DNA from: Takakia lepidozioides
Taxonomy: Eukaryota > Plantae > Bryophyta
Reading direction: 5' to 3'
Length of the DNA stretch: 64,000 nucleotides
Assembly (NCBI GenBank): GCA_030704615.1
Contig: CM060734.1
Span: 59,148,001-59,212,000, forward strand
A program made the position numbers and the translations under genes. Of the stretch, positions 26,770 through 64,000 are shown piece after piece. Numbering within the stretch: position 1 is the stretch's first letter; the number at the start of each line of letters is the position of its first letter. The notes under the pieces are model-generated. The model saw only the letters and a list, made by a program, of their open reading frames with translations, searched no databases and was not told the DNA's origin.

Positions 26770-29148
26770 TTAATAAATTGATGGTAACAGATGCTATGTT
26801 TGTAGATGATACCTTCTTGATGCTTCAGGCAGATCAGCATAATCTGGACATAGCCTCCACTACCCTCAACACCTTTTGCTCTGCATCAGGCTTTAAGGTG
26901 AATTGGAACAAAACAACAGCTCCGTTGGTGGTGGATCTGTCTGCATCCATGATAGGGGTCAATCCTTCCTGGGGTGATAACCAGGGTCTTAAATGGCTCA
27001 AACCGGGTGAACCTACAACACTATTAGGGTACACTTTTGGTATTGATCTCTTGGACGAGCAGATTTTTAGACCCATTATCTCCAAGCTAAAACTCAGGCT
27101 CTCTCAGAGGGGAAGCAAGTACCTGTCTATAACCGGGGGGGCTCTGGTAGCCAATCAGATCTTGGAGGCTGGCCTATGGTATTTTGTTGCTGCCTGGAAG
27201 CCCAACTCCTCCCAAATTCAAGAGACAAAGAGACTTATCAGGAACTTTATCTGGGGGCAGAGCACTCGACCGATAAGAAAAGGCTTCACGTGGCTTGGGC
27301 TCAAATCTGTTGTCCCAAAAAGAAAGGTGGTCTAGGTGTCATAGACCCAGACATCCAGATAACAACTCTTCTAGCAAAGTGGATCCCCAGATTTCTGGGG
27401 CCGGAAGGGGGACTTTGGAAATTTCTGGTGTTTGACAATATAGCCCTTTCGTCTCCACTGAAAGCTGTCCAATGGAAGCCTTCCATCAGGTGGATCACTC
27501 AAGGATTCAACCTTAAACCTGGCTATGGATAAATATCTGGATGGCTTGGGGGAAATTTCGCCGTTTCCTCGTTAAATCAAACCCTGTCTCATATTACGAG
27601 ATGCTCAGGCAGCATCTATTCATCAATACCAATAATCCATCTCCCCAGCAAAAAAAAGAAGCTAGACGCTGGTCTGCCTGGGATACTCTCGGAGTCAGCT
27701 CTGGCAAAGTACCCTTCGTGCTGGACCTGCAGATCCTGCTCCCCGCCTATGGGCACTTGTAATTCTCCAAAACCGCCTCTCTATCATTTATGTCACTGAC
27801 TCTAACCCTTCTCACCACTCAGTCTTTGCCTTCAATATTGTCCCTATTTCTCTGGTTCTCTCTCTAGCATCTCCCTCCCCGCTGGACATCCCTACCATTC
27901 CCCTAACCCCAGTAAGGATCTGGGCTTGGTCTATGCTAGATAGGCCTTTGGACCCCAAACCTGACCTCTTGACCCCTCTGGAGAGTTGGCTATCTGGAAA
28001 TACCTTTGTTTGGATCTTGGGGTGTCCGCTAGCAGAGATGGATATCGACCCTATGGAATGGTCCTGGAAGTTTGCAAGATCGCCAGAGCCTTTCTTCACC
28101 TTCGCCACCAAGAAAGGTTATAAAGCTCTTTCTAACTTTCAATGCTTCAAGGTTAAGTGGGAAGCCAGATGGGAGCTTTACGGCTTTCGCGACAAAAATT
28201 GGTCAGCTATTTGGAGCTCTGTATGGATTAAATCTCGTCCTACAAAAATAGCCGCTTTCCTTTGGCAGATAGTCAACAGGGTGTTAAAGGTAGGGGAATG
28301 GCTTCAGTTCTGAACATAATGGAATCCCTAGAGCACTGCCTGCTTTCCTGCCATGCACCCGCCAAAGTCTGGCCGCTGGTGAAAATTTTCTATGGCCATT
28401 GGAGCTCCAAACCCCTTCAATCCCTTCATCTTCTTCTCAACTACGACCAACGTTCCAAGAACAAAGCCTTCAATTGTCCTGTTTTTGAGGCCCTCAGAAG
28501 CTCGGTCCTCTGGCACCTATGGAAAGCCAGATGTAGGAAATCCTTTTCTAGAGAAACTACCACCATCCCTCCCTTCTTTCTAATGTGTTCTATGATCTGG
28601 GAGTGGAGTCAAGGAAAGCGTGGTCAAAAACCTGTGCAGATATCGAGCGGAATTCTGGAAGCGCAGCAGCTATCCACGCTAACTTCAAGGCCACCTGGGG
28701 CAATCACGGCCTTATCTACTTCTCCCCTGAGCAAGACTCATGCATTTGGACAGAGCTCCCCCCTTCTTGCTAGCGAGACCACCGGGCAACACTCCATAGT
28801 GTCCCCTGAGTTTGAACGGGACGTCAACTGGAAACATCTGAAGCCACCTCCATAGTTTCCAGGCTCCACTATCGCTTTTCCTCATGGTAGCATAGTAGTC
28901 TAAATGAACCTTTTTCTCCTTAGCCGTTACTCGCCCTTAAGAATAGATCCATCGTCAAGTATTGTCAACTTGCTTGGTTCTTGATCTCTCTCCTGATATG
29001 GGAGGAAAAGGTCTTCATTCACTGAAATCGGTGTGTGTACCTCATGGTGTAATCGGGGTTTTAATTTTTTTCCCCACAATAAACTTAATAAATGACTAGG
29101 GCCTTGACCCCTGTTATGCTTTAAAGAAAATAAAAATAAAAATAAATT
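26770..29148 (+). mobile_element. L1-type LINE 3' half with A-rich tail
   Basis: FVDDT, FCSASGFKVNWNKT, CCPKKKGGLGV, zf-RVT-like KIAAFLWQ..ESLEHCLLSC; tail AAAGAAAATAAAAATAAAAATAAA at about 29123-29147. Confidence 0.85.
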
Positions 29149-41799: not shown

Positions 41800-44700
41800 A
41801 GTACAAAAATATAGGACGTTACAAATACAAGTGTCAACTTTCTAGTCACAAACCCTCCATAGCTTTAAAGGAAGATCCAAGTGGGGTGACTGTACAAATG
41901 GGTGTACCTGTCCCCAAGAGGAAACATCCAAAGCTCGTAGAGCTACATATATTAACACAAATAAAGAAATCAAACTATTCTAGTATCACCTACAGCCTGA
42001 AGAAGGTCAGACAACAGGAAAGAGGGTGGATCAGAGAGTGCGGGGAGGCGAGATGAAGCCGCCCCAACAACCTCTTCCCGACGTAAAATAGATTGAGCTT
42101 GACCCTTTTGCAAAGCAACAGAAACTCGTTGTCTAAAGAAAGCTACAAGAACAAGGCGTATGGGCTTCCAAGGCTTTTGTTTTCTGCTGCACGATGGGCA
42201 CATGTGCGAAGGAACTCGTTGAACTGATGATGCAAACAACCAAAGATCTCGACTGCCAAAGGAAGGAATGTGTCTGTGGAATGACGTGCCCGATAATCAT
42301 GCTCCTTTCCCTGCGCAGCTACTTAAGCGGCAACTCCCGGTGATGAGGTTGTGCGGTGCAGGAGATCCGACCTAGTAGGATCAACGATGACAACGTCCGC
42401 CAATGTACGCAATCCGTCCTGTGAGAGAACAATGTCAACCCGTTGTCGAGTGGAATGGTGATTGTGGGTCGATGGGACTATGTGCACCTGCTCTCGAATG
42501 ATATGTATCTCAGCATCACGAGCAACCGCAGCTATTGCATCCCAGACGACGTCATGGGTCGCAGTGCGTTCTCCACCGCAGGGGCAACGAAGAAGATGTA
42601 CGCCAAGTGAATCGAGAGGATGACGACAAACACACTGTTGTAGTCCTAAAACAGAGGGATGTGGAAGACCCAGTCAAACTCCTAGGGAGGTGGTAAATAC
42701 AGCAGAAGACATACGGAAGGGTGCAATGGTTGGTCGTACCGTGAGCCACGCACCTGCTCCGGGCCTTGCGCACGAGAGAAGTCTGGCCCGATGTGCATCT
42801 GAAGGAGCGTCGGAAAGCATGCCGACAAATGAGTGTCGGTTCACGCGCGTTCCATGATGGTATCCTGTAAATGCTCCAGACCTTGAGTGACCAACTGTTC
42901 AAATGGTGGCAGACAAACCCGTGTTGGTGTTGGGATGAGGTCCCGCGCTGAACGAAGATGTGGCTGGAAGAACAAAAAGCCATTGTCGATGTGGGCAACC
43001 ATCTCCATGAGAAAAGGGCGTTGCTAATAGAGAAACCGAGATGTCAAGGCTAGAGCGACTAAAGCCCAACTACCTAGGAAGGCAGCAGGGGCAGTGACGA
43101 CTGTGGATAGTAAACCCACTCCTCCAGAAGAGATCGGGAGGGTAGCCTGACGACATGCCAAGGGCCCCTGCTCACTATCAAATGCACCTGGGCCTAATAG
43201 ACGACCAAATATCTCCCTAACAGTCGTATCAAAAGAAGACAGAAGCTCCACAAAAGGAAGTGGGGGGGGGGGAAACAACGCAAAAGATAAGAAGGTCGCT
43301 GTAAAAAGCATTTGGTGAGAATGCCATGGGCTACCTGCATATCGCCTAGTTTGGGAAGAAGCTCTATATGGCTTGTATCCTGTAGCAAAGCGTCTTGGAG
43401 GAAAGATGTTGTGTAAGGGGTACTACCAAAGGGAACACCTAACACTCATATACCCTCAGATGGTGCTAGAAAGTCGACAGGGGGCACAAAATCTGAAGGC
43501 AGACCAGAGGGTGACCAAACTGTGGATTTGCGAGGTTGAACAGTGAGCCCAAGAGAGTGAAGTTGGGTAGCAAAGTGATGGAAAGCCAAAATGATATCAG
43601 TGGGAAGGCCAGTGATATGGGTATCATCAGCAATAGAAGGAAATATACAAGATTGGAAGGCTTGCGCAAATGAGCGAAAGGCTCGGAAGTGGGCAAAAGC
43701 AAAAAGAGGTCCCCCTAATAGATCGCCCTGACAGGTTCCTATTTCGGACTGGATTATAGAAAGATCTCCGGTACGGGTGTGATAACTGTAAAACAAAGGG
43801 GTGGAGGAAGCATAAAACAATCTCACAAAGGGAATGAGTTGATGGCATGCGCCGCCGGCTGATCGCAGTTCTTGAAATATTGCTGATCTGGACACCGTGT
43901 TGAAGGCGTTGGTCACATCCACCTGAAGGACGACCCAGTCTGGATGAAGGTCAAGGGAAGCCCGAATCCCATGCACCACCGCTTCACAACCTCCCTGAGT
44001 AGCGACCCCAAACTGATGTGGAGAAAAGTGAGAAGGAAAGACCTCCTGAAACTGGATGCAGATAGAGTGGCTCACCAAGCGATACAGAACCTCCCCCACT
44101 ACAATAGGACAAATCCCACATGTGTTCTTGGACATGGCCAAGAGTCGTGCTGCTCCAAGCAAACGTGCTACGGGGGTAGGTATATGTCCCATCACAATGA
44201 AAGAGCAAACTTGGAACAGCTGGGAAAAGCCACTAGCAGAGTCATGTGGATTGAGACAGTCATGGAGGTGTTCATACACCAAACCAGATGGACCTGCTGC
44301 TGCAAGATAAGAACTACGAGTGAATGCTTGTATGAAAGTATCGCGATCCAATTGAAGGTCCTCATCAGGTTCAAAGTCCTCCACAAAGCAAGGAATGATG
44401 TCGTCCGCACTGGGGTGGAGATTCTCCAAAGCTGTGACAGTATCAGCCGAAGGCGGTGCTGGAGTAAGAGGAGCAAGAGCTCGACCTGCACGGGAATACT
44501 CTCCTACCCGGCCTAGCATAAGACTCCGACAAAGACGCATGTGGATGGATGGAGATGCCTGGAGTGGGCTATCATGAGTTATTCGTGCCGCAAGTGCTGG
44601 TGCACGTAGATAATATTCGTCTTGAAGGGTTTCCCAGTCCCCAGAGAGAAATCTATGAAGACGGGCACGCGTCTCTCGATGTCCGGATTCACCACCACGT

Positions 44701-45760
44701 GGAGGCAAAACTAGACCCAATAGAGGAAAAAACAGAAAAAGGTGCCAAGCAGCAATGTCGTAAGGGTCCCGAGCAAGGCGGTCCAAGGGTAAGCGAAAAG
44801 CATGTTGTACCTCTCTGCGGAGCGCCATTGGGATGCGTGTATAGAGCCGGGGACGGGGCAAACCCAAATGAAATGCTCCCAAAACATCAAGGGTCGCAAT
44901 CCAAAGCCATGCCTGGGCAGAAAGAGCTACTAACGGGGTAGGCAAATGATTGTCTGGAGAAGACTGATTGAGTGTAGAACACGTGTGCCGATGACGCGCA
45001 CGCCCCCCTGATACAGGCAAACATCCGACCACAACCTGGACAAAGCACTTGGTCTGGTGGAGAAGATGGTGGTGCTGGTGGTGGGAGATAAGATGGAGCA
45101 AAAGGACGGGCGGTCTGATCAGGTGAACATGTCCGCTGTCTAGAAGGAGGTGGCGAGCCAGGTGGAGAGGTAAGCTCTGTGGGAGGCCGCCGTGAACCTG
45201 AAAGGCGAATTGGGGAAGGGCCACTGGCCCCATGATTTGGAGTTGTTGTGCCTCGCTTGGGGTTGTCCGGTATCATTCCTGTAGAGCTGTGACCTTGGGT
45301 AGAGTGGGAGGGTTCACCATCACCAACGCTTCCTCTCCACCGTGGATGAGGGCTACTGTGACCGAAGAGGGAGGGTGTAACACTACTCTTGGCCCCATTT
45401 CTACTGCTCCTAGGATTGTCTTGAAAGGAGGGACAGGGCCCACCACCAATATTCCCCCTGGCTGTACTATGTCTCTGGCGGATGTGCCTAGTGTAAGGGG
45501 GTTGACCACCCTGGCATCTAGGGTTACCTTGTGTGGCAGAGAAGGGCCCACCATTATCACGTTGAAGGCTGGTGTGCGAGGAGTGGGTGGGCCCGACACC
45601 ATCCTGCACAGCTGCTGTGTTCCGTTTAGACCCACGGTTGGGGTGTCTACCGCCTCTAGCTACCCGCTGTCCGCCATCGGCCTCTGCCCGCTGTCGGCCA
45701 TCGCTTTCCATGAAAGGCTTCTCGAAGACACTGCTCTTTACTACTCAATTCTTACCATAA
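41800..45760 (-). mobile_element. CRE-clade-like non-LTR retrotransposon with restriction-like endonuclease (RLE), degenerate
   Basis: N-terminal CPGC zinc finger; RT QFGVATQGGCEAVVH, VDVTNAFNTVSR, GTCQGDLLGGPLF, IADD, LGVPFG; C-terminal HLLRCPCGGERTATHD..RVDIV..ADVV..K..Y..FLPLAVE (CCHC + PD-(D/E)xK). Boundaries approximate. Confidence 0.85.
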
Positions 45761-46042: not shown

Positions 46043-46330
46043 TTACATGTGTCCGTAGACTGGGGCATGGAGGAACAGCTCGGTGACGATGAGAGAGAAG
46101 AAGCCGATCATGGCAAGACGACCATTCCAGCGCTCAGCCCTGGCGTTGAAGGGACCGAAGCTTCGGGCGTCGTGGCATTCATGATTGGCACCAATGACGC
46201 GTATATGAGCGGTTGCATAACAATCAAGAAATATATGAGGCCGGTAGGTCCGGAATTGAACAACTGCTCTAGCACTGTCAATCTGGTCATCTTCTCCGCA
46301 ACAGCCGCCCACACGAATCCCACCATAGCA
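46043..46330 (-). pseudogene. ELIP: ELIP / LHC-like three-helix protein, 5'-truncated and frameshifted
   Basis: AMVGFVWAAVAE..LIYASLVPIMN, frameshift near 46175, then DARSFGPFNARAERWNGRLAMIGFFSLIVTE (chlorophyll-binding ExxNGRxAM motif). Homology stops abruptly at 46330. Confidence 0.8.
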
Positions 46331-48532
46331 TGTAATGTGCCACCGAAAGAGCCTCCAGCTATAGACCTTACTGTTCAGAAAACTGGATCGCATCAGTAAG
46401 CAGTAACTGTGTCAAGCATCGGTGTCTATCATCACTTCTGTTTTTTTTTTTTTTTTTTTTTTTTACAAAAAACCGGGATTTAAAATTTATTTTAAATTTA
46501 AAAATAAAATAAAATAAAATAAAATTTTAAGAAAAAAACAGCGCACAAGTGATGATCAATGCCGATCATCACTTACAGTGCTTCAAGATTTTGCAGAGCA
46601 TTTTTTATTTCGGCCAGAAATGTGGTTCACATTGTTTTTTGAGTCCTGCATCTTTCCCCCTTGCAAAATTAGTTGTCCATCAAAACATGATCTTAGGGCT
46701 GGAAGAAGTGATGCTCACCGATCATCACTCAAACTGCTGTGTGCTTTTGTAGAGATATCTTCATTTCGTCCAAAAATGTGAATTGCATCGTTTTGCTTTC
46801 GTGTTTCAGTCCTACCTTTCCTCAATTGAAATTGAAATCTTCAAGAAAATGTGATGATCGGCGGTAATCATCACATTTAGACCTTCTTCAGGGTGGTACT
46901 TGTGAGGTAGTAGAATTCCCATCAACAGTCACTCTCTGTAGGGAATGTGATGAACGCCGCCGATCATCATATTCTCATGTTTTGTGAATTGACATGTTGG
47001 GAATTGCATTGGGTTTGTGAGTTAGCAGGTACACAAAATATGTGTTGAGGGGAAACACTTAGCGGTGTCCCTGATTGTCTCGACATGTGGTCGGATCCTC
47101 ATTTAGGATCACAAACTGATTCCGTATTTGACAGCCCCCTGCCCAGATTTTTGCTTCGTGTGTATGCAGAAGAAATGACATTTCGCATGTCCGAGGCTCC
47201 ATCACCTGATCCCAGAATGTCTGCACGCGCGAGTAGACATCCCATATCCGGAGTTATGATTTTTTTGGACTTGGATGCAGAGGATGCGGGGATATGTTAT
47301 GATGAGGCCGAGTCAGATTGACCTTTAACCACTAAAGGACAAGAGGTGTTTTTGGGTTTTTGGACAATTCCGGGACCCACCCTCACACTTCAGCGGCTAC
47401 CTGCCCACTAACGTTCATCCACGTGAATGAACCGTACAAACTGCTTCCTACCTACCAGATGCACAAGCCCCCCAAATTTGGGGAGATTCCATAGTGTAGT
47501 TTGGGAGATTATAACATTTGAAGATGGTGCATTTTTTTGGAAAATGGAAAAAAAAAAAGCAAAAGTTCATGTTTGACCAAGCAAATTATCCATGATCCAA
47601 AATTTTCCTGGGAGAAAAAGTACTATATTCCTGTGAAGTGCACAATCCCAAACCCTCACACCAATCTGCCAAAATGAAGGGGTATGTGACTGGAATGGGG
47701 GTCCAAAAAGAGAATTTGCAAAGAAAATGGTATAGGCCCCATTGGGACCCCAAATTCTACTTCAATTGGGAATTCCAATGGTCAGTCCCTCATAGGCCAA
47801 GAACTACACAAGCCTGCCCAAGAATTTTCCAAAAATTCCCTAAATTGCATTTGGGATGTGGGATTTTGTGAAATTTCCGGCTTCCTCCAGGTCAGGCAAT
47901 CGGTGGCCGGAATTTCGCTTGAATCCGGCGACGTTTTCTGGGCCACGTTGAGGTTTCCCATTGTTTGCCACGGCCAGCTCATTCGAGCCGTCCCCGTGTT
48001 CCTCGGCCTTTTGGAGAGGGCCTCACAACCCCTGCATGGCCCCCGCCGCAAAATCCCACCCGCGTGGCCGCTGCCACCTGCCACGTCGATGGTCAACCGC
48101 CGTGGCCTCCCCCATCCACCCAAAATCCTACAATTTTCAAACTTCAAAAAATTCCCAACGGCTGAGTTTTTCTCTGCTGGGAGCGCCATAAAGACCTGCG
48201 TGTGCAACTCGTTCCGCGCTACATTTTTTGTTCAAGCCATTCGTTCATCGGACTTCATCCATGCATGCTATGGATGGATGAAAAATCGGGCCGACCTTAT
48301 TCGGGTCGGCTCGTCGTTTAGGGGTTAAAGTTTCTATGTACTCTTTCTTCATCCTCATAAAAGTATTTTGACTTGTTGCGACTGTTCATCTGTCCTAAAT
48401 ACGAAAGGAAAGACTAATTACAAAACACACATTCATGGGTTGACATGGCCCCACATAATATTGAAAGACAAGAAATCCAACAAAGTTCAAAATTGCCTTC
48501 AGGGAAAAAAAACTACATCAATCCATCGTAGT

Positions 48533-49012
48533 TGTCGTGCACCTAAGCATCGTGCCACAACATACATCGTTGTCCACCACACAATCTAGATAATGGAAGT
48601 GGACACACAATGGAAACACTCCACTCATGAATCCACTCAATCACATAAACTAAGTCAAGCCGAGGGCACCTTTGCTAAAGGAATCCACCCTACAAAGCCC
48701 TCACCACACTCCCTCTCAATACCTAGAGCTATGGAGGTGGGAGAGGCTCATGGAGGCTCATCTACAAGAAGATGAGCCTCCTCAACACTCACAAGGGGAA
48801 AACCTATCTCCATGTCTCAAGTGAGGCTCGACACCTCACTTGGCATGTGAGACCAAATGAAGTTCCAACACACAAAATATAAATATAAATATCTAAAATG
48901 TCATAGTTAACTAGAAGTAGGTAATTCTAGATAACCATGATTAAAACCATGACAGCTGTCGTGCACCTAAGCATCGTGCCACAACATACATCGTTGTCCA
49001 CCACACAATCTA
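48533..49012. repeat. Repeat A (56 bp, identical copies at 48533-48588 and 48957-49012) flanking repeat B copy 48606-48954
   Basis: TGTCGTGCACCTAAGCATCGTGCCACAACATACATCGTTGTCCACCACACAATCTA occurs twice; junction CATGACA-GC-TGTCGTG at 48948-48963. Confidence 0.95.
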
Positions 49013-49041
49013 AGCACACAATCCTAGAAAGCTATACCACA

Positions 49042-49053
49042 ATCGCCCCCCTA
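49042..49053 (-). promoter_or_regulatory. Putative polypurine tract
   Basis: TAGGGGGGCGAT followed immediately by TGTGG on the element strand, downstream of the pol stop codon. Confidence 0.6.
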
Positions 49054-49298
49054 GCTGGTGGTTAGGTCCCTCTAACTCCAGATAGCTACAAGATGTAATA
49101 GCCACAGCCGTACTAAGTCCTCTATCACTATCCCTATTGTACTCAAACTCTATAGACCAAGAGGTCGGGTACAAGAGCAACCCCATCGTTAGTCGCCGTC
49201 TTGCAATTTGTGAACTTGAGTCAGGATCTCGTGTATTGGTCTCCTAGTAGCTTGGCCTTGCATTTCTTGTTAGCCTTCCATGGTTGTATCCACTCCCA

Positions 49299-52200
49299 CT
49301 AACCAATGCAATGCGGACATAACCAATCCCCATCAGGAACCATCTCAAGAGGTGGAGTCAAGCATCCCATATGCCAACCTCTAGAGCATTGATCACACAC
49401 CAGCATGGTGGCTGCCCCTCTAGCAGACCCACACGACATGCACCTCAAACTTGCAGGTACCACTGCCAAGTTTGGGTCAACCCTTCCATAAACATTTGGA
49501 AAGTGACATGGCGCGCAATTACGCACATGGTCCTTCCAAATCATGCCATCCTGACCCTCCAAGATCAGGACTCCTGAGGGCAACACCTCTCGAACCCTCA
49601 AAATAGTACGTCCTGCAGTCACATCCAAGGTCGTAGGAGCAATCTGCTGCAGATAAACATAGTCACCAGGGTTAAATCTCCGAACCCCAGAACGATAGCC
49701 CCCACCACGTATGGTAGCATACCTCAACGTATCACGATGTTGGGCAATAGCAAGGTTCTCAAAAGCCATAGGCATGACTCTCTTGAACAACTCTGCCCGC
49801 TGGGCACATGCTTGTGTCCACACATCCGGATCATCAAGGTTGATAACTACTGCAGTCTCCCTGCGAATAGATGCAGTCAAATCTGGCTCTCGACCAAAGA
49901 TAGGAAAATACGGTGAGAACGAGTCAAGTGATGCTTGTTTGCTAAACCTGTAGCCTATGGCCAACCAAGGTAGCTGAAGGTCCCAATCTCCTAAGTGTCC
50001 TTTCTGCAAGCCATACTTGTGCAAGCCTCGCTTGACTGTTTGTACAACCCTCTCTGCCAGGCCATCAGCCTCGGGATGATCCCGAGAAGTAGTGCGGTGA
50101 TCTATCAAGGCTTGCTTACACAAAGCCTGAAACTCCCCCAATAACTCTCTCCCCTGGTCCGTGAGTACCTCGGCTGGAGCACCAAATTGGCTAAGCACTC
50201 GATCTAAGAATGCATACGCAGCCCCCTCACTTGCCTTGTCAGGCAATGTCACCAGTTCAATCCACTTGGAGAAATGTTCCACCATCACCAGCACATCTTT
50301 GTTATGGCGAATCGTCAGTAGCAATGGGCTTGCAAAGTCAAGACTCCAACGATAGCCCAAACCCATAATGGGTAAAGTATACAATTGTGGAGTAGGTGCA
50401 TTGAAAGAAGCTCGCACTCTATCACACACCATGCACCTTGCCACTAACTGTTGCACATCCATGTGCATGCCCCGCCACCAGTACTGTCCTTGCAGCAAAC
50501 TATGAGTGCGCCGCACCCCAAAATGTCCCAACTCCTCCTGGGCATGGCGTACCAATTGCGCTCGTTGTGTTGGATGAGGCACAATCCTCACTCGTCCATC
50601 CTCCCATACTCGGAGTAGGTGAGTCCCCTCCCACTTGAACCTTTTGGCTCGTTGTAGGATCCGATCTCTCTTCTTAGCAGTCACACTGGCTGCTGACTCT
50701 CCAGTACAAAGGTAGGCCAACACTGCTGCATCTTCATGTACATCCTTAGCACCACCAAGCTCATCACTGATCTCCGGATCGTCATGCACACCATCTACAT
50801 GACCAATGCTATGGGATGGACCAGCTTTAGCTCCCATTGCTAGGATGCACAAAAAGACATATGCATGCCATCCTGGCACCATCTCCTCATCTGTCTCACC
50901 ATGCCACCGAGCTCCAGTATCATCATGCTTGCTCGTGCATGGATTACGACTCAATCCATCTGCATCCCGATTGACAATACTGGCTCGATGCACCACCTAA
51001 AAGTCGTATTCTTGAAGCATAAGTGCCCACCGTGCAAGCTTCTTTGTAAGCTTGTCTGACTCCATTAACCACTTCAATGGTTGGTGATCCGTGACAAGGG
51101 TGAAGAGATTGCCATAGACGTAACATTTGAAATGTGCCATTGCCCATACCGCAGCTAGACACTCCCCTTCATAGGAACTATACTTCGCCTCGACATCATT
51201 GTTTGAGCGGCTAGCATATGCCACTACGAACTCTCTTCCCTCATCATCCATCTGTGTGAGCACTGCTCGAATCCCCAGCATACTCCAATCCGTATGTAGC
51301 TGGAAAGGCCGCCCCCGAATAGGTGCAGAAGTCAATCGAGCCTTGAGTTCCTCAAAGGCTTCCTCCTGCTCCTCCTCCCACTGCCACTCCTGGTCCACCT
51401 TGGTCAGTTTGGTTAGAGCCTTTGCAATGGCACTAAATCCCTTAACAAACCGTCTATAATAGTTTGCTAACCCCATGAAAGCTCGAACTCGGCTCACATC
51501 CGTGGGGCGTGGAATCTGTGCAATGGACTCTACCTTAGTCTGTTGTACCTCCAATCCTCCAGGATATATCATGTGACCCAGATACTCAATTTGGTTGTGG
51601 AAAAACTTGCACTTCCCCGGATGTAACTTCAATCCGTGTGCCCTCAAGCGCTCAAATATCACCTGAAGGTGTCTCTCATGCTCCTCCACCGTAGCACTAA
51701 AGATGATGATGTCATCTATATAGCACCGAGCAAACTCCACCCCTGCTAGAATCTTGTTCATGATTATCTGAAACTCTGCCGGAGCGTTCTTAAGCCCAAA
51801 TGGTAAGAACCGCCACTGGTATAGGCAATCCTTCCCGTGCTCATTGATCCCCCAGAAGGCAGTCTTCTGCTTATCCGCCTCCTTGATTGGCAACTGGTGA
51901 TATCCGGATCGTAAATCCAAAGTGCTAAAGACCTTGGCATGCCCAATGGCATCAAAGATCTCCTCTGGTGTCGGCATGGCATACCTATCGGACTTGGTCT
52001 GACAATTTACAGGCCGGTAATCACCGCACATACGTCTCTCCGTCCAATTGCCATAGACATCCTTCTTGGCTGGCATCATTGTGGCTGAAGCATACTCTCC
52101 CCAAGATAGCTCCACCAAACCAGCCTCCTAAAGGTCCTGAGTTCTCATATGAATCAAGGACCTCTCCATGTCACTGTATCTATAGGGTCTCTGAAAGATT

Positions 52201-52370
52201 GGCGTGTCAATAGCCAATTCAATGCGAATCTCTTGACCCTTCAGTGCTCCTAAGTCCTTCAAACTGAAGGCAAAGCAGTTCCTGTAAGCCCTCAAGAACT
52301 GCCGTATACGTCGTCTTTCTCCTCCGGTCTTTCTCCTAGGTCCAACATCAGGCTCCCAGTTGTCCTCCAC
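49299..52370 (-). pseudogene. pol: Pol: reverse transcriptase, RNase H, integrase, C-terminal PHD finger
   Basis: RMCGDYRPVN, LDLRSGYHQ, PFGLKNAP, YIDD; TDWS, YEGECLA, TDHQPL; H..LGH..CMVC, WSLDF, TDQG, GLAER; PHD CMSC..VCDQC..WHMGCL..P.GDWLCPHC (49305-49442). In-frame stops at 52128 and 50997. Confidence 0.95.
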
Positions 52371-52729
52371 GACTGCAACCTTGAGTCCAGCAGGCTTAGA
52401 GGTAGAAGACGCGTCCCGTGGTTGCTATGCTGCAACCTCTTGAGCAGTGACCACTGCCTCCTCTGTCAGTGACAATGTCTCATCCTGCCCCATCATCCCA
52501 TCCTTGAGGACCTCCTCAACCCGAGAAAAATCCCCAACCTCATCCATCACGGCCGCCTTGGCTGCCAACTCCTTTTGAGCCTCGAGCACCTCCCATGTGT
52601 GCCATGGATGCGGCCTGCACCTCGTGGTCCTCACCTGTTTGCCCCCACTTGCTGCCTGTACCGTCTCGGTAGGCAGGGAGACCATCAAGGGAAGTGTACT
52701 CCGTACTCTGCGCTGCTCAGCCATAGCCA

Positions 52730-53680
52730 AGCTGATAATCCAGGTCAAGCAATTGAGATCCATTGCTTGCCCCAATACCTGACGACGTGATGCCTCGGAA
52801 AGAGATGGCACCGCCGTGGTACCAGTGGTGAAACCCATTGCCCGCTCGCGCTCGTCAGCATTGGGCTCCACTAACTGCTGCAACTGGCTATCCCACAAGA
52901 GGCCAGGTCCACCATCCCGGAAAGCATGAGATCCTGGAAAGCTGAGGAGTGTAGGCAATGCTCGTGGGTGACCCACCTTATTGACCACTATCAAAGGTGA
53001 TCGGTCATCGTGTCTCACACGCTGAGATTGCCTCCCTATGTCCAAAATGCTATCCACCGTTAGGTTTGGTGGCCGCTGCACCCCATCAAATGTACGTTTG
53101 AGCAATGCAGGTGGTATCAAGTTGGTCCACCATAGTCGTGGGCGATGAGCCCGTGACCCCACTGCAGCTGCATCCAGCAACACTGCTGACCCAAGCCAAG
53201 ACCGCACTTGATGTACACTGGCCATCACCTTGGCCCGAGAATCACCCATCAATGGCACATTCTCCAAGATATATGCCGGAGAGTCTGTCTGCTGAAGCTG
53301 TAAATAGCGCAGGACCCTCAACATCTCCCAAAACAGGCGTGACCTTGAGTCTTGTAACCCATGGCCATACCCAGCTGATGAAAGCCCTTGGCAGGGCCAA
53401 CCTACCACTACTAAGTGAATAGGGCCAACCCGCTCCAAATCATGCGCCTCCAGCAAAGAGATGTCTGTTGGCAAGGCTTGTTGGTATCCACGAACTGCAG
53501 ACACTGGCAACAAATCAGGGTACTGCTGCACCAACTGAGCAACATGGCACAGTGAGATGCGTCATGCAGTCTCATCCCTCTCTACATATAGGTAACGTCG
53601 AACTCGTACATCTGCCTGCAGCACTGCAGCCAATCCAGTGTTAATCCCGCCAAACAAGTCCAGAAGGCATATGCCTTCAT
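52730..53680 (-). pseudogene. DNMT3-like C5-cytosine DNA methyltransferase domain within Pol
   Basis: Motif I LLDLFGGI; II YLYVE; IV GWPCQGLS (53391-53399); VI ILENV; VIII AHRPRLWWTNL; IX ERERAMGF; X LGQAM. Same frame as RT/INT; one TGA at 53562-53564. Confidence 0.93.
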
Positions 53681-54069
53681 CCGGGCACTGCCACACAAGA
53701 GGTGTGGTGTCCAATGGCGACAACTGAGGTGGTCATGGTGCAATCACCGCACTCTCCTCCTCTCCTGACGGTACAAAGGCCTCTACCCAGGCTTGTTGCA
53801 CCCGTCTATCAGCGCCTGCTGCAAATCCTTGCTCGTACCCCACAATGGAGTGTGAGCAACCATGGCAGACAACTCCGCCGTACCATGCATGTCATCCTGC
53901 TCTGCTAGAGGTGGCACATCCTCTGCATGGGCATTGCCCTCCAGCAACTCTCCATGCCAACTAACTGCAGCTGTGAAGGCTGCTAGTGTTGGCATCTTGC
54001 TCCGTTGGGCAGCAGCAACACCCCCAATGAACGTCACAGGGAGTTATACATGACGACCATCCCCTGACT

Positions 54070-54350
54070 GCCATCCAGGCCTGTAGGATGCTGACTTCTC
54101 CCAAAAATCCACGGTGAAGCCCATGGGATACAACACTGCCCCACCAACGAGGACATCGTAAGAGACCGCGTCTGTTACAATGGCCTTGGCTTACATCACT
54201 GAGCCATCTATAGGATGATCCGGTTGTAGTCTAATGGCCAACTCACGCCGTGTCATGCCCCGAGCCTACTCTGATCCTCTTAGAGATGTCTGTATCTGGA
54301 AGGGACAAGGCTCCATACCCGCAGTGGCCAGTACCTCTTGCCTGCCGGTC
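54070..54350 (-). pseudogene. Aspartic protease remnant lacking the catalytic D(S/T)G segment
   Basis: YWPLRV runs directly into MEPCPFQIQTS...AIVTDAVSYDVLVGGAVLYPMGFTVDFW. The C-terminal retropepsin-like motif is present and the active-site motif is missing. Confidence 0.55.
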
Positions 54351-55249
54351 CATTCAAAGAGAAAATGCCATCCTGGTTGTCTAACAAGACAACTCCAGGT
54401 GTCATCATGGCGCGCTCAAAGGCTGGCCTAGCTGGCAGCTCCGTCAACCTGACAGCTGCAGCTTGCCATGGCGCAGCCGTGGCAGTCTTGACCCTCAAAT
54501 CCGAGGATCCCTCTGCCACTACACCTTCCACTAACTCCGCAGAAGATGAAATGACCTCCCCACTCTCGCAGAGTGTTGCTGCTAGTCTGAACACTGTAGC
54601 TGGTCTTACCCTGGCGTCGCAATCATGGTTGCCGAGAACAGTGGGGCCTGACACACAAAGGTGGCCGCCCCCAACAACACACTGGCTGCACTAGCCTTGG
54701 CAGCAGGTGTCAGTGCTGCACGTGTAGCTCTTCCCAATGGCACAATAACCTCGCCTCGGTATCCGTGGGGCGAGAATTAGGTGCCATGGATGTCGTCGAC
54801 ACTGTCTCCGCCAAGATGAATGATTGAGGCAACCTAGCCTGACGGCTTGCCTCCCCACGTTGTGAATCCAACTCCACCTGTGCACCTCGTGGCTCAGGAA
54901 CTCGTGCTGCTCCTCGAGTGACGGCTGCAGCAGACTCCACCTGCACTAGTGGTAGTGCTGCCCCACCCATAAATCCCATGCCTCCCATGTCTCCTCCTTT
55001 AGGATGACGCTAATGAGGAGGAACAGGAGGTGGACCCTCAAGTCTTGGAGCTGGTAACACCTGAGCTGTGGCCATGGCAGCGAGCCTTTGCTCTAGCTGC
55101 TGAAGCCGGTTGGCCATACCTTGGTCAACGCCCCGACCTCCACGTCCTTGGCCATACTGTGCTTGCCCTCATCCTGCACCTCGTGCCTGAGCACCTCGTC
55201 CTCTCTGAGGTGCTCCACCTTGCCCTCGGCCACCATTGTTCCCTTGCAA

Positions 55250-56540
55250 CTGGCCTCGCCACAACTTAGGGTGCAAGTCATAACACTGGGCATCTCCATG
55301 CCCATACTTGCCACAATGCCCACACTGCAACTGTGCAGGCTGTTTGTGCCGGCCTTTTGCCACTTTCTGGGCAATCTTTCTTGATATGGGGTCCTGCACA
55401 TGTCCAACATACCACCCCTGGTTGTTGTTGGCCTACAAAAGAAGCTACTGGCCTCTGCACCTGAGGTCCCTTGTAAGCTCCATGGAATTTGGGTTGGGCA
55501 ACCTTGCCCCCCTTACCACGCTGTTGGGCAGTCCCTTGTACCTGTTGGCTGGCAGCTGCGCCTCGTGCAGGCATGTCCTTGCAAAATCCAATGGTAACAA
55601 CTCGCTCTTCCACCATGTTGAGCTCAATCCGCTCAGCCAGCAGAAACATATCCGCTAATGTGGGTTGGGCAACAGGGTTGCATCCCGCACCCTTCTCCTG
55701 AGCTCCTTGTCCAAAATTCCATACTAGAACTGGACTGCCTGAGCTTCAGTAACCCCTTGGGTCACACTTATCAAGCGCCTCATACGAGTGTAGGCCTTTT
55801 GCACTGGATTTGCGCTGGAAGTCTTGCAAACTTCGCAGCTTCTCTGTCCGTACACCTTGGTAGTTCCTCCACAACTCCTGGAAGAACTCCACCACCGGGT
55901 TGAATCTAGGCACATGTGTTGTAGTCGTGGCAGGAGGAATAGTAGCACCTTTTGAACTAGTACCACCTACAGAAGTACCGACACTACTTGTTCCACTACT
56001 AGTGCTTGTAGTTGGAGATGTTTGTGTAGCTGCTGGTGTCACCGCTGCCCTTGTGCCTCTAGTGATGGAGACATAGTCAGGTGACCAATACACCCGCCAT
56101 TCCTCAATGTCCACCTCATGTCCCTACCTAAACTCATGGTAGTCATCCATGGGCGGCCCCTCAAGGTGCTGAAACAACCCCTTCCACATCATAAAAGGCG
56201 TAAACAGTTGTGGATTGCGCATTTGCTGCAAATCACACCAACTATCAAACTCATGTATGAAATCATCAAGCTCGATGGTGCCCACAGCTCCAGAGTACCG
56301 ACGTGGCCCCATGGTAGCTCCATACATTTCCTCCATCGTATCCCACAACAATGGCACGGAAATGGCTTGCACCCTCGGCGAGAATCCTCTAATCTGAGTC
56401 TGAACCTTCCTCAGAAGACACTGAAGGTGAAGGTGGCCTAAACTACATACCTCGTCTTGTATACCTATCGCTGGTGCTCGTACCGGCACTCTCCTTAGCA
56501 ACTGGTGGCACCTCCGTGATGAAAACTCACAACCACACAT
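55250..56540 (-). pseudogene. gag: Gag with two zinc knuckles
   Basis: LDDFIHEFDSWC..GLFQHLEG, LRSLQDFQR, AYTRMRRLI; knuckles CWTCAGPHIKKDC and CGHCGKYGHGDAQC; stops and frameshifts. Confidence 0.8.
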
Positions 56541-57416
56541 GTTGTAAACTTGTCTCTAATCCCCCTTTCCACAAGGTAATTGGGTAGAGAATCTGTTGCA
56601 ACTTATGGCTTAGACTATTAGGTTCATAACATAAACCTGCACCTGCATCCACCGCAAACACTCATATGGTCTGCTGGTCATCAACCCAGCCTCACCATAA
56701 GAGAAACAATGATGGTTTGATTGGTCATCACCCCAGCCTCACCACCGACAACATGCTCTAGGATTGGCCGGTGATCAAATCCGGACCAACCTCCTATGAA
56801 AACAAGCGCCCACACAAAACTGACATGGCGCACAGTCAAGCATGCAGGTGTGGGGGGGATCCAAACACAAGAAAATCAAGACAATAACTCCCCCACACTA
56901 AAAAAAACACTTCACATTGTCGCTCCTGCAAGGACACCCCAGCCCAAACCCGGACTGACTCTTGCCTCCACCTACGGAAAGGTTTTGGCCTATATAGAGG
57001 GTGGAAGACTACGAGGAAGAGAGACTAAAGCAATTCCTAATCCCAGAATGCTCTCATCCCACTAGTCTCCTATCTCTAAACGCTCTTGCTCATGACCAAC
57101 AGACATAACTACCTTCCAGGGTCTCTCAAATAACTCTCCAAGAGCCAAATATTAGCCTCCAAGGACCCCAAAATAGTCCTCCAAATAGCCCTCCAAAGGC
57201 TCCAAATGTTTGCCAAATATTGGTCTTCAAGAACCCCCAATAGTCCTCCAAATAGTCCTCCAAACACCCCTTCAAGAGCTCTTCAAGTGTCTTACAAAAG
57301 CTCCTCAAAGGACCCCCCAAAGATCCTCCAAAGGCAATACTCCTCCAGATACACCCTAGATGTCATACACTTTTAATGAAAACGTATGGTAGGAAAAGTC
57401 TCTCCACTTGTATCCT

Positions 57417-57590
57417 TACACTGTTCACAAAAGTGTATGGTGGGGCAGAGGGAGCCCATACACTGTTCACAAAAATTATGTTGGGCAGAGGGGGCCCGTA
57501 CACTGTTCAAAAAAGTGTATGTTGGGCAGAGGGGTTCCATTCACTTTTCACAAAAGTGTATGGTGGGGCAGAGGGAGCCCATACACAGTT
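57417..57590. repeat. Tandem repeat of about 40-42 bp x about 4 in the retrotransposon leader
   Basis: TACACTGTTCACAAAAGTGTATGGTGGGGCAGAGGGAGCCCA variants. Confidence 0.9.
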
Positions 57591-58937
57591 TCTTGAAGAG
57601 TATGGAGACTAGGGTTTGTAGAATATAGTAAGAAACACCTTCTTCATGGTATCTTCCTCCCTAACATGCATGCAAGATTGCATTATCTTACTTTGCAATG
57701 CATTCATCCCAAATTGCCAAGTTCCTCTTGATCTCCTTGGATCTCATAGCAAGCTAATGTGCCCAATGACAAGCGCCAAGCCTTACTTGAATTTGAATTT
57801 TGTATGTCATCTTCCATATGCTTTCCCTTGCATGGGCTAGTCACATACACTTCCACCTCTTGACCTAGGTGTTGTCTTCATTCATCATAATAGACACCTT
57901 TATTCAAGAGCTCATCTTCTCAAACTTGAAGTCACAAGCCCCAAAAAGCATGCTCCACATAAGCATCACTTGCTTGATCAACCATCCACCACAAAACTTA
58001 AGCCTTCCTTGTCTTGTCACATGCTAATGTATGGTTGAAGTTGCTATGCATGCCGTGAGCCACAATCTCCTTTCTTCATGAAGACCACCTCCAATGATCT
58101 CCCACATGTGCTCCAAGCTCTTCAATACTCTAGGCTTGGTTTCACATCATCATGGATAGAATTCTCACCCACATGCTTCCCTTTGGAGTCATCTTGAGCT
58201 TCTTGATGCTCTCCAAGTGGTTGCTTTTGTTGTCTTCAAGCCCTAGCCTATGTAGCTCCTTGGCTTTTCTTCCACAACATGCACCACCTCATACACAAGG
58301 AATGAACTTGCTCACTTCACCTTCTAGCTCTCCTCAAGCTTGAATTGGAAGCCACACTTGGAAAGCATGCTCCACACATGCGCCACTTGCTTGGTCAATC
58401 ACTTGCTTCACCAAGAGCAATCCAAGAACTCATAGAACTAGCAAAAGCACTCCCTTCTAGCGCCGCCTTCGCTTGCTTGTTTGTCAACCAAATGAAACCC
58501 CACTTGGCTTCATTTCACCATGGATAAAACAACCACTTCTTAGCTTCTCTTGAGCTACTCAATGCTCCTCAAGCTACCCTTGTTGTACTCCTTCTATGGT
58601 GTTTCCAACCCAAGCATGTGCCGCTCTTTGGCTTCTCTTTCACACCATGAATAACTAGAGCTTGTTCTTGAGACCCTAGTGTCTATCTTCTCCGCACACA
58701 AGACGCTTCTCTTGTGATGCAAGAGCTCTTTCAAAGTTCTCCACCTTTATAGAGCAAAGTAATGCTTCTCAAACCCTAACATCCATGTTCTCCACGCCAC
58801 AAGGATTTTCCTTTGCAACACCTGCAATACCTTGCAACACAAGAGCTCTCTACCAAGCTCTCTCCAACACACAAGTGCTAAACTAACCCTTACACTCCGC
58901 ACTCACAAGCATAAGGAGATCTTCTTGTAGTGATAAT

Positions 58938-59286
58938 CACAATGGAAACACTCCACTCATGAATCCACTCAATCACATAAACTAAGTCAAGCAAAGGGCA
59001 CCTTTGCTAAAGGAATCCACCCTACAAAGCCCTCACCACACTCCCTCTCAATACCTAGAGCTATGGAGGTGGGAGAGGCTCATGGAGGCTCAACTACAAG
59101 AAGATGAGCCTCCTCAACACTCACAAGGGGAAAACCTATCTCCATGTCTCAAGTGAGGCTCGACACCTCACTTGGCATGTGAGACCAAATGAAGTCCCAA
59201 CACACAAAATATAAATATAAATATCTAAAATATCCTAGTTAACTAGAAGTAGGTAATTCTAGATAACCATGACTAAAACCATGACA
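58938..59286. repeat. Repeat B (349 bp), 5' terminal LTR-like repeat; copy at 48606-48954
   Basis: Direct alignment by eye: same length, about 7 mismatches (about 98% identity). Confidence 0.95.
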
Positions 59287-60699
59287 TAGTGTTCGTACTC
59301 ATTTCCCGTTACATTCATCCATTCTACATTCATTCATCCTGCATTCAAGAATCGTTCGCATTGTTCACACTCATCCATGTTATATTCTTCCATGCTACAT
59401 TAATCCATATTGCATTCATCCAATCGATCGGCTGGATGTTAAAGATATAGTCTGCAATGATTGGAAATGGTAAAATATTCCGCGGAAATAGGCACCTACC
59501 TTCTGTTCGCGGTTATAGATCCGTGCCTTTGGAAATGACGTGACGTCAACCACGCTGGCGAGGACTGCTGATGTGACGTCACACCCGTGCACCAACGTGG
59601 CGACAACTGCTGACGTGGCGTAAGCCTAACTACGCTCACGTGCTCACACGCTCACCCGGCCAAGCTCACGCGGGGGAATGCGGAGGCATTCCCCCAGCCT
59701 CGCACCGCACTCTTCCGGCAAGGGAGGTCAGTAACCTGGGAGACCTAACCGTGCGCTTCCTAGTTTGCTAAACCTAGTAGACTGGATAGGCAAAGCCTGC
59801 AGGCCTCCGAGCTGCGCAGTAGCAGTGCGCGACATTGTGGCTGCCATCTGCTCAAGTCACACAACAAATGCAGAGCTGCAAATGCTGGATCAAGTGAGGA
59901 GAGTGACTTGTTGAAGGTGACGAGCAAAGAAAGTGCAGACGGGGAATAGTAGTCGAAGAATGTTGCGGTGGATGTTGAGAAGAGTTGAGAGTTGGAGACG
60001 ATGCGTTGCAGTGAGACAAGCACAAGTATATGTAAGGAGAGTGGGAGAGTCCGGTGACACCAACGTACTTTCCAGATCAGTTGGTTGACGTGTCACAGAG
60101 TAAGGAATCCAACACGCATAGTCTGTGCACTTTCACGAGAGTGAGAAAACGGACAATCCTCTCTCGACCGATGGATTCACTTTCGTTGCAAACATTTTCG
60201 CACGTATCCGCCCAGTTTTGCAGAGGCTGAATGTTGAGGAGGAGAGCGGCCATGTAGCGAGTAATACTTTACACGTGGCCCACCTCGCATTGCAATGATT
60301 GCTAATATCGACCGTCTCTCCATTTATGTCAGTCGGACAAGATTTGCAAGAGCGTGGATGCTCCGTTCTGACTTGTTCTTTGGAGGGCGCTTGGAACAGA
60401 CTCACCATCAGAAGGACGACACACGTGGCTTTACCGATCCGAAGGGGTGGTGAATATAAACCGGTGCGCATGAATGACTACGATAGCACCAGGTGTCATA
60501 GATACTTGTGATCCCACTGTCAAAGTATCTACCGCCGTTGTGAGCACCCAACTCCCACCCCTGCCTGTCAATCGGTGAATCTTAGGTTGATCAGCGGCAG
60601 TCTCCTTGTGTTTCAGCACTGGGCAGTTCAGAACTGTCCAGATACATAGTACACAACGACTCCTGCAGCCATGGTGAAATTGCTCAAGGCTCATGGGTC

Positions 60700-62698: not shown

Positions 62699-64000
62699 TC
62701 ACCAGTAATCCCCACAAGAACAAACCCCATCTTCAAAGTGGTGAAAGCGGTTAGCGTCCCGTACCACAATTGCTCGGCCAACAATCTTTGAGATGAACTT
62801 AGTGGAGGTATGGCAGTCACCACACACCCCAAGATTCTTGATGAGACGGAGAGGCGTACTAGGGGCCGTGCTGATCAGCCCAAAACCAATGGCCAGCTTC
62901 TCACTGTGGTGGCAAAGAGCAAAATCCTTTTGCTCCTCCCCCACATCAGGCAATACAAAGCGCATGTCAGGCACATACCCTGCCTCCTTCATCTGCCCAG
63001 ACAATCTTCGCAGCTCAGCATGGATTTCCACAATTTTGGGATGCAATTTGTCACCCACAACAAAGGTGTGCACCCTGTTGCCCACCTCAATGCAGCAGTG
63101 ACCTGGCTCCTTACTAGCCCCTCTGACCATCATCATTTTTCTCACCTTTGCACTATCGTCCCACCTGCCAGCTGCACCATAGATGTTTGATAGCAGCACA
63201 TAGGTCGCAGCATCCCCTTCATCCCACTTGAGAATAGATGTTGCCGCACGTTCAGCCATTTCCACATTGCCATGGATGCTGCAGGCACCAAGCAAGGCCG
63301 TCCAAACCACAGCATCCGGTTTGATTGGCATTTTATTAATGAGGTCCTCTGCCTCATCCAATCGCCCCGCACGTCCAAGAAGGTCCACCATGCAGCCAAA
63401 GTGTTTTACTGTCGGAGTGACACCATGATCTTGACTCAGGGAATCAAAGTAGCGTCTTCCTTCATCCAGTAGGCCAACATGCCTGCATGCAGAGAGAACA
63501 GATATAAAGGTGATACTGTCCGGCTTCAAGCCTTCCATTTGCATTCCTTCAAATAATTGCAGGGCCTCCCTATGACAAGGGCATATCCTGCAATCATCCC
63601 GTTCCAGGACACCACATCTCGTTCAGCCATATTGTCGAACACTCCCTTTGCATCTTCAATGCTTCCACATTTGGCATACATGTCCACCAACGCAGTGTTC
63701 AGAATGACATCTGGTACGATTCCAGCTCTTACGATGTCACCATGAACCTCTTTGCCCTTTTCCAGAGCTGCCAGGCTTGCACAGGCATTGCAAATGCAAA
63801 CAAATGTGATGTGGTCGGGCTTCACTGCTTCCCGCCTCATTTGCTCATAGGTCTCCAAAGCCTCCATCCCGCACCCCTGTTGTGCATATCCTGTGATCAT
63901 CGCATTCCACGACACCACATCTCGTTCAGCCATATTGTCAAACACTCGCTTTGCGTCCTTGATGCACCCACATTTGGCATACATGTCCACGAGGGTATTG
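62699..64000 (-). pseudogene. PLS-E-DYW PPR protein (C-to-U editing deaminase type), 3' part; single frameshift near 63575
   Basis: PLS repeats, E domain, PG box (EPGHCCIEV), HSEKLA (HxE), CGDC, terminal CSCGDYW. The two ORFs are joined by a small deletion in GYA..GHREAL. Gene continues beyond the window. Confidence 0.9.

Follow-up and report, generated by a model that had tools for sequence, protein, structure and literature searches.

A green-plant Ty3/Gypsy retrotransposon family with a DNMT3-like methyltransferase, an integrase PHD finger and split end repeats, represented by a dead copy in Takakia lepidozioides

We analysed a 64,000-nucleotide stretch of Takakia lepidozioides DNA (contig CM060734.1, positions 59,148,001 to 59,212,000; hereafter the window) and found that its minus strand carries a dead copy of a green-plant Ty3/Gypsy retrotransposon family with a DNMT3-like DNA methyltransferase, a PHD finger on the integrase and split end repeats. 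The architecture, its family-wide retention, the selection, the split repeats and a 4-bp target site duplication (TSD) are jointly established with near certainty. We further propose that the element primes its own reverse transcription, produces large amounts of its methyltransferase upstream of a leaky stop codon, integrates by the cutting of an internal palindrome and, as predicted from sequence, methylates its own new DNA; for this reading as a whole we estimate a probability of roughly 55%. Elements of the Gypsy-DNMT3 kind have been known since 2018. Added here are the span of the family from green algae to bryophytes, the PHD finger, a conserved and likely leaky stop, and signals for an unusual integration route. 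The element and its coding regions are as follows.

48533-59286, minus strand: whole element, 10,754 bp, termini TGTC...GACA.
57417-57590, no strand assigned: 41-nt tandem repeat, 4.2 copies, within a long 5' leader.
54749-56463, minus strand: gag with a CCHC zinc knuckle (55283-55324), frameshifted in the window copy; located by tblastn with Marchantia and locus open reading frame 1 (ORF1) proteins and by translation.
53816-54748, minus strand: protease region, frameshifted, with about 25 codons gone near 54316, the active-site position.
52728-53675, minus strand: DNMT3-like C5 cytosine methyltransferase domain, with one near-private stop at 53562.
52419-52427, minus strand: conserved TAG followed by CAACCA, a leaky-stop context of tobacco mosaic virus (TMV) type, between Gag-protease-DNMT and reverse transcriptase (RT)-RNase H-integrase-PHD.
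51567-52034, minus strand: RT core (YIDD), closest solved structure Ty3 RT.
51006-51311, minus strand: RNase H (Pfam).
50073-50573, minus strand: integrase zinc-binding region and catalytic core, with D, D and E all present.
49308-49442, minus strand: C4HC3 PHD finger, C-terminal on the integrase.

A single minus-strand frame, 53732-49302, runs for 1477 codons and contains exactly four stops, at 53562, 52425, 52128 and 50997, just as a preliminary description of this DNA had read it. The domain set given there was likewise recovered by profile search: DNA_methylase (E = 1.5e-10), RVT_1 (2e-33), RT_RNaseH (4e-34), Integrase_H2C2 (5e-14), rve (2e-11) and PHD (1e-9) follow one another in this order, every one above its curated Pfam cut-off. 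Among solved RTs, that of Ty3 was by far the closest (E = 5e-65, against 3e-35 for the next-best family), and the window and its relatives show the Ty3/Gypsy order of gag, protease, RT, RNase H and DDE integrase. The element is longer than first proposed, 48533-59286 replacing 49299-56540. In the window copy the gag-protease part is spread over several other frames, and where relatives have an aspartic-protease motif it contains no stretch that aligns to the active site. Because gag and protease pass through several frames and these active-site codons are missing, the copy cannot be autonomous. Gag-like look-alikes of the Marchantia homologue are a lead only. Read depth over the 5' leader was far below that over the coding part.

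We searched protein, contig and read collections for relatives; with the DNMT region we obtained 43 proteins of 812-2585 aa, 15 of them named Marchantia polymorpha (at most 75% identity); Sphagnum fallax, Closterium and Monoraphidium were also matched. Profile searches added 62 long and 238 shorter proteins (120 of the shorter ones listed), and the hosts named among the matches listed included Calypogeia fissa, Sphagnum troendelagicum, Marchantia paleacea and Riccia sorocarpa. A land-plant family, for which the preliminary description knew of no characterised case, thus exists in Marchantia, Riccia, Calypogeia and Sphagnum. Among the matches listed, none bore the name of a fern, a hornwort, a seed plant, Physcomitrium or Klebsormidium, but most matches are unnamed, so that this is not evidence of absence. 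With E-values up to 1e-30, the DNMT family fell into 353 clusters at 50% identity. RT, RNase H or integrase was encoded in the same chain in 58 of the 61 new representatives of at least 900 aa, and a PHD finger was present in 38 of the 48 that contain an integrase. DNMT, RT, RNase H, integrase and PHD were all found in one chain in 30 natural proteins among 244 collected, in addition to the window read-through.

Phylogenetic trees of the DNMT and RT regions were built from 40 family proteins. The 9 proteins with the DNMT before the RT form one clade in both (support 0.998 for DNMT and 0.99 for RT), patristic distances in the two trees are correlated (Spearman 0.83), and the two have 13 of about 37 splits in common. 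A second domain order, RT-RNase H-DNMT-integrase-PHD, was observed in 31/40 tree proteins, Monoraphidium included (P0028, P0029, P0033, P0034, P0037, P0039-P0041 and P0121 are examples). The DNMT has changed its place in the polyprotein one or more times. In run X1 the summed contig depth reached about 3e5-1e6 over the coding part including the DNMT, against 70 for an exact flank contig, which indicates a highly repeated family and is not to be read as a copy number; depth over the DNMT matched that over RT and integrase in runs X1 and X5. Coverage in run X9, presumably an RNA run, was left out of account. Run X8, under another organism label, yielded one 5009-nt contig collinear from PHD to DNMT. 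The DNMT and the PHD are thus stable components of the family and not passengers of one copy. P0126, labelled as a protein of a bacterial metagenome-assembled genome (2.4-kb contig), is taken as eukaryotic carry-over. A scan of IMG/VR gave, from 54 pattern matches, a single weak locus, L081 (44% over 61 residues), which as far as examined does not belong to the family.

The C5-methyltransferase motifs noticed in the preliminary description were found in unrearranged order: I (LFGGINTG), IV (GWPCQ), VI (ENV), VIII (AHRPR), IX (ERERAMG) and X (LGQAMD). The best solved relatives of the domain are DNMT3A/B (E = 7e-10), followed by M.HhaI (1e-3) and DRM2 (0.17), and by sequence the enzyme belongs to the DNMT3 family rather than to the DRM or bacterial types; a low-confidence fold model likewise places it nearest to DNMT3. 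It is intronless and occupies the same position in dozens of loci and several host genera. In the alignment the catalytic Cys is kept in 289/297 covering proteins, the motif VI Glu in 319/331 and the two motif VIII Args in 315/345 and 328/345; in relatives below 45% identity, Cys and Glu are each kept in 180/181. Compared with the window, relatives show a nonsynonymous divergence (dN) of about 0.22 at saturated synonymous divergence (dS), and between families dN/dS is about 0.1-0.23 (0.12 for L035/L036, 0.11 for L035/L046). As judged from these comparisons, the domain is under purifying selection with its catalytic residues conserved. Near invariance of the Cys, the Glu and the motif VIII Args in distant relatives argues for catalysis, and the domain is probably an active C5 methyltransferase. 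Conserved catalysis, together with the fusion to Gag-protease, suggests that it may act inside the particle on new cDNA. Whether the element's own cDNA would be its main substrate we rate at even odds; if so, new copies would arrive pre-marked.

The ends of the element have an unusual organization, made of the following parts.

59287-59290, minus strand: 5' copy of the 4-bp TSD, ACTA.
58932-59286, minus strand: repeat A1, sharing 98% identity with A2 across 349 bp; predicted to comprise the 3' part of U3, R and U5.
59093-59105, minus strand: predicted self-primer within A1, a stretch of 13 nt complementary to the primer-binding site.
58919-58931, minus strand: predicted self-priming primer-binding site directly after A1, with no tRNA-type TGG start.
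49044-49052, minus strand: polypurine-tract-like run directly before B1, at the same position in L010, L035, L044, L058, L067 and L069.
48957-49043, minus strand: repeat B1, predicted to form the 5' part of U3; its 87 bp are found at full length at A2/B2 joints in run X1.
48951-48960, minus strand: internal palindrome GACA-GC-TGTC, which reads as the element's termini with 2 nt between them and is the predicted site of integrase attachment.
48589-48954, minus strand: repeat A2.
48533-48588, minus strand: repeat B2, 56 bp; it lacks about 30 bp at its 5' end, the remainder being identical to the 3' part of B1.
48529-48532, minus strand: 3' copy of the TSD, ACTA.

Read along the minus strand, the layout is A1, internal region, B1, GC, A2, B2 (A...B-GC-A-B). 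The same layout was found in L044, L067 and L069, and its 3' block alone in L010, L018 and L058. Two full, identical long terminal repeats (LTRs) do not flank the internal part; the terminal repeats of about 98% identity noted in the preliminary description are real (7 differences in 349 bp) but represent only the A part of this split system, B1 and B2 differing at 0/56 positions. As to the recent activity deduced there, the 2% divergence of the A repeats gives the insertion a modest age, but the copy itself is dead. A 4-bp TSD surrounds the element in 7/7 loci with both ends (L078 being read across a decayed end), and the termini are TG...CA. In run X1 a contig bridges both flanks with a single copy of the 4-mer, revealing an empty site in a paralogous repeat; the flanks (47900-48532 and 59287-59900) have summed depths of 3,000-4,700 in that run, and the element sits within another repeat. 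The internal palindrome is present in the window, L010, L044 and L046, with one or two changes in L018, L034, L035, L058, L067 and L069, and is kept in relatives at about 50% DNMT identity. The self-priming complement extends over 10-17 nt in 13/20 loci, in none of which was a control window as long, and in a second family the pairing uses different letters; its fold z-score of -4.5 is biased, the stretch having been chosen to start at the helix. The element behaves like an LTR element with a permuted repeat.

Short forms, A-ORFs-B without the A2-B2 block, were also seen, with both ends and a TSD in L007 and L078 and with the 3' end only in L021, L025 and L034. Such forms would be produced when a single cDNA is cut at both its palindromes, when the source is a 1-LTR circle, or when B1 recombines with B2. 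Downstream of the element in L034, an unrelated-looking B-A-B block with a purine tract and a GACA-GT-TGTC junction (16423-17075) suggests a second split-repeat family nearby.

The stop at 52425 (TAG followed by CAACCA) separates the DNMT from the RT. We scanned 81 loci from other samples; 54 loci, including the window and not de-duplicated, reach the RT start. A TAR-(C/T)AR-YY motif 75-130 nt ahead of that start occurred in 49/54 loci, as compared to 138/4000 random windows, and in 2 of the 5 loci missing it (L037 and L038) the site lies beside the DNMT, displaced by an insertion. The preliminary description had treated all four stops as breaks in the frame. This remains correct for 53562, 52128 and 50997, which are near-private to the window copy (sense codons in 71/72, 56/56 and 35/38 covering loci, respectively), but not for 52425, which is conserved family-wide. 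Several Marchantia ORF1 gene models end in the same linker, at 1278-1281 aa. Since the stop is conserved and these models end there, ORF1 in this clade is Gag-protease-DNMT, and RT-RNase H-integrase-PHD comes next in frame. The DNMT is therefore part of the polyprotein, as had been claimed, yet does not simply lie inside Pol: it ends the Gag-protease ORF. In plants, CAR YYA after UAG drives readthrough, as in TMV (PMC2754532), and the Tj1 element combines self-priming with a required Gag stop (PMC4600332). Judged by its conservation and context, the 52425 stop is likely a leaky-stop site rather than decay, RT-integrase-PHD needing readthrough. It is highly probable that translation would mostly terminate at this UAG, giving abundant Gag-protease-DNMT and, by readthrough, rarer RT-RNase H-integrase-PHD, so that particles would be rich in DNMT.

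The integrase C-terminus carries the PHD finger in the place where a chromovirus would have its chromodomain. Its best solved relatives are CHD4, PHF12, ATXR5, KDM5A/B PHD1 and PHF21A, fingers that we take to be readers of histone H3 unmodified at K4. Moreover, none of 39 family PHDs (0/39) has a Trp two residues ahead of the His, presumably the cage position for H3K4me3. The ADD domain of animal DNMT3 also reads H3 unmethylated at K4. By these sequence features we lean slightly towards a finger that would bind the H3 tail unmethylated at K4 and steer integration away from active promoters. In P0121, a weak Tudor-like match lies C-terminal of the PHD.

How would such an element be copied? The primer site and the purine tract define the limits of the copied repeat, which is B-GC-A, and ordinary reverse transcription would thus give [B-GC-A]-ORFs-[B-GC-A]. 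Very probably, the RNA would start inside A1, its 5' end pairing with the site after A1 and priming the minus strand as in Tf1, and the purine tract would prime the plus strand. DDE integrases use ends with 2-nt overhangs. In the next step, which we consider probable, the integrase would cleave the left internal palindrome after CA in each strand, the resulting 2-nt overhang ends would be inserted 4 bp apart, and the original cDNA ends would be joined, in a 2-LTR circle beforehand or after insertion, leaving A-ORFs-B-GC-A-B. In the insertion L048/L051 the A/B2 joint includes 10 nt from the primer-binding site, as end-joined cDNA would give. Elsewhere the A2/B2 joint is precise (5 loci), about 30 bp short (window) or variable (run X1 contigs). 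Foamy-virus integrase is known to cut palindromic LTR-LTR junctions (PMC1180852). The proposed cut resembles the generation of processed ends by foamy-virus and HIV-1 integrases on 2-LTR circle junctions (PMC1180852, PMC1905944, PMC4372172); there the palindrome arises when true cDNA ends are joined, in a debated side route, whereas here the repeat itself encodes it, and it defines the ends of all insertions examined.

Several observations weigh against the reading proposed here. Its support is sequence-based. For the integration route, L048/L051 is one single, rearranged insertion, and the precise A2/B2 joints of 5 loci would also come from inheritance by templating. The mirror form A-B-GC-A-ORFs-B was found in 0/20 loci with A1 (19 distinct flanks); equal cutting of both palindromes predicts that half of the insertions have it, so that the model needs an unexplained cutting bias. 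In 7/20 loci the self-priming complement measures only 5-8 nt. For the stop, a strict in-frame walk through 49 distinct contexts gave 7 exact CARYYA, 22 CARYYN and 20 that meet a nearer stop or a frame change, the commonest context, CAACCC, is one base off CARYYA, and some relatives (P0025, P0038/P0077, P0101, P0103 and P0105) have a single open frame without the stop, which means that bulk DNMT is not universal. For the enzyme, the fold model is of low confidence (pLDDT 57, TM about 0.45 to DNMT3, motif I absent from the AlphaFold model), and between closely related copies dN/dS is 0.58 for the DNMT and 0.97 for the PHD, values that fit decaying copies and are not in themselves a sign of constraint. 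Lastly, the isolated DNMT of KnitGypsy-Dnmt3, an element of the alga Klebsormidium nitens, gave no methylation in yeast, a test that its authors call inconclusive (PMC5890265).

This last result also bears on an explanation that accepts the same element and denies that its DNMT serves the cDNA: the domain would act on host or rival DNA in trans, or have no catalytic role, serving to bind DNA or as a decoy. That transposon methylases serve in defence has been put forward, as speculation (PMC6338049). Moreover, CpG depletion is no stronger in the element than in its neighbours, the observed/expected ratio being 0.50 for the element, 0.42 for a non-LTR retrotransposon (LINE) and 0.37 for a host PPR gene of the same window, and it does not discriminate as a footprint of self-methylation. 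We nevertheless hold this explanation to be unlikely: human DNMT3B failed in the same yeast test (PMC5890265), the catalytic Cys and Glu and both motif VIII Args are near invariant in distant relatives, and the fusion to Gag-protease puts the DNMT among the particle proteins.

More doubtful still is copying in the manner of Ngaro/PAT-type DIRS elements, in which the B1-A2 block would template both ends, the A2/B2 joint would be inherited and the integrase would open the resulting circle. Such a scheme explains the missing mirror form without an extra rule, accounts for the precise joints, and fits the DIRS-type repeats noted for KnitGypsy-Dnmt3 (PMC5890265). On the other side, the purine tract lies exactly before B1 and the self-priming site exactly after A1, the canonical places for a B-GC-A repeat. 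The joint bearing primer-site sequence, the window joint lacking about 30 bp of B and the variable joints of run X1 also speak against it, as do a Ty3-like RT and the lack of any tyrosine recombinase among the proteins scanned. We see next to no chance that the element is an accident, i.e. that one copy recently captured a host DNMT3 and that nested insertion or recombination made the odd repeats. The window copy is heavily damaged and some loci are rearranged (L037/L038, L048), but the intronless DNMT stands at the same place in dozens of loci of several host genera, a single 4-bp TSD encloses the whole unit in 7/7 loci, an empty site was seen, and the 9 proteins with the DNMT ahead of the RT fall into a single clade in either tree; the host gene MpDNMT3b (Mp5g09290) was not among the named matches listed.

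A more far-reaching version of the proposed reading would make the family an ancient green-plant LTR superfamily that integrates through an LTR-internal palindrome, in which a DNMT3 made at Gag level methylates the cDNA before insertion, methylation maybe choosing the palindrome, and the PHD aims the intasome at H3K4-unmethylated chromatin. We regard this version as improbable; if true, the very many bryophyte copies would make the superfamily a hitherto overlooked contributor to de novo methylation in land plants.

KnitGypsy-Dnmt3, the closest element known, reported with DIRS-like repeats and Gypsy domains and presented as an acquisition of the K. nitens lineage (de Mendoza et al. 2018, PMC5890265), resembles the family in its unrearranged, intronless DNMT3-like domain within a Gypsy polyprotein, its purifying selection and its split DIRS-like repeats. 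Unlike that element of one alga, the present family is found in liverworts, Sphagnum, Closterium and Monoraphidium. Compared by description only, the two are likely of common descent; no protein named K. nitens stood among the matches listed from the DNMT-region and profile searches. For KnitGypsy-Dnmt3, the available text of PMC5890265 makes no mention of a PHD, TSD, leaky stop, self-priming or integration route, and a text search of its main text and three supplement files, figures aside, gave zero occurrences of "PHD" and "Marchantia". Later papers speak of "streptophytes (Gypsy-DNMT3)" (10.64898/2026.05.21.726589; PMC12344493), and bryophyte copies may already figure in their trees or supplements. 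Fusions between PHD fingers and transposons have been reported more generally (10.1101/2021.11.30.470311), and in a review methylase-encoding transposons are said to be absent from land plants such as tracheophytes (PMC6338049). The bryophyte family, the combination of DNMT and PHD, the leaky stop and the palindrome route were nowhere described in the full-text literature searched, which excludes subscription papers and Repbase reports, and the available descriptions of Phygy and Selgy mention neither a methyltransferase nor a homeodomain finger.

Other known systems share single traits with the family. In Tf1/Sushi, the Tcn1 chromoviruses and Tj1, the primer-binding site is complementary to a stretch of the 5' repeat (PMC6317226, PMC4600332); the family resembles them in its self-priming signature, read here from sequence, and in a chromatin reader at the integrase end, and differs in having a PHD rather than a chromodomain, an added DNMT, and split instead of flanking repeats. 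Tj1 also has a stop at the end of Gag; that stop is required, and the one described here sits after Gag-protease-DNMT. PpDNMT3b, a moss host enzyme with demonstrated de novo CG and CHH activity (PMC6453930, 10.1101/2021.02.12.428880), and MpDNMT3b share the DNMT3-type catalytic domain and the plant groups, whereas the element enzyme, known here from its sequence, is intronless, multi-copy and fused to Gag-protease. Troyka was set aside as an identity, since it has CG...CG termini and a 3-bp TSD and occurs in animals only (PMC12440569), as compared to TG...CA ends and a 4-bp TSD here. Also set aside was a DIRS/Ngaro tyrosine-recombinase element, rve and Integrase_H2C2 having been found and no recombinase family in the proteins scanned. 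Ngaro/PAT-type DIRS elements have the same A-ORFs-B-A-B layout of split direct repeats, and some DIRS carry DNA methylases; the present family differs from the former in its DDE integrase, TG...CA ends, 4-bp TSD, purine tract and Ty3-like RT.

Family members are abundant in bryophytes. In Marchantia polymorpha, one of these hosts, they appear in the annotation as hypothetical proteins, and mutants in host methylation are available; a transposon's use of its own methyltransferase can thus be tested in a model plant. From the leaky stop follow predictions of where, and in what amount, the enzyme is made. For the split repeats, previously noted in a figure legend, primer, purine-tract and attachment sites are now defined, and these predict specific cDNA intermediates and a non-textbook integration. 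Tools that seek two flanking LTRs are expected to overlook such elements.

The rest of the window is rich in repeats. On the plus strand, 16551-18974 is an 807-codon ORF for a PPR protein (Pfam PPR), with a 73% similar inverted paralogue at 63069-64000; by eye we take it to be an editing factor of PLS type. The gene is in keeping with a land-plant host and, together with the nearest named relatives of the element, indicates a seed-free one. Two inverted copies of a non-LTR retrotransposon RT region, 86% identical, lie at 19809-22662 (plus strand) and 13109-15530 (minus strand), with more RT fragments at 26358-27335 and 43446-45272. A small exon of chlorophyll a/b-binding type (ELIP/OHP-like) lies at 46043-46411 (minus strand), about 2 kb downstream of the element. 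A Ptta/En/Spm transposase fragment (8392-8910) stands between two tandem arrays, at 6326-7316 (103-nt unit, 9.5 copies) and 10958-11190 (56-nt unit, 4.2 copies). Finally, three consecutive long ORFs at 569-3574 (plus strand), of which two were scanned and gave no Pfam match, have Cys/His-rich and SWIM-like ends and are possibly a decayed DNA transposon.

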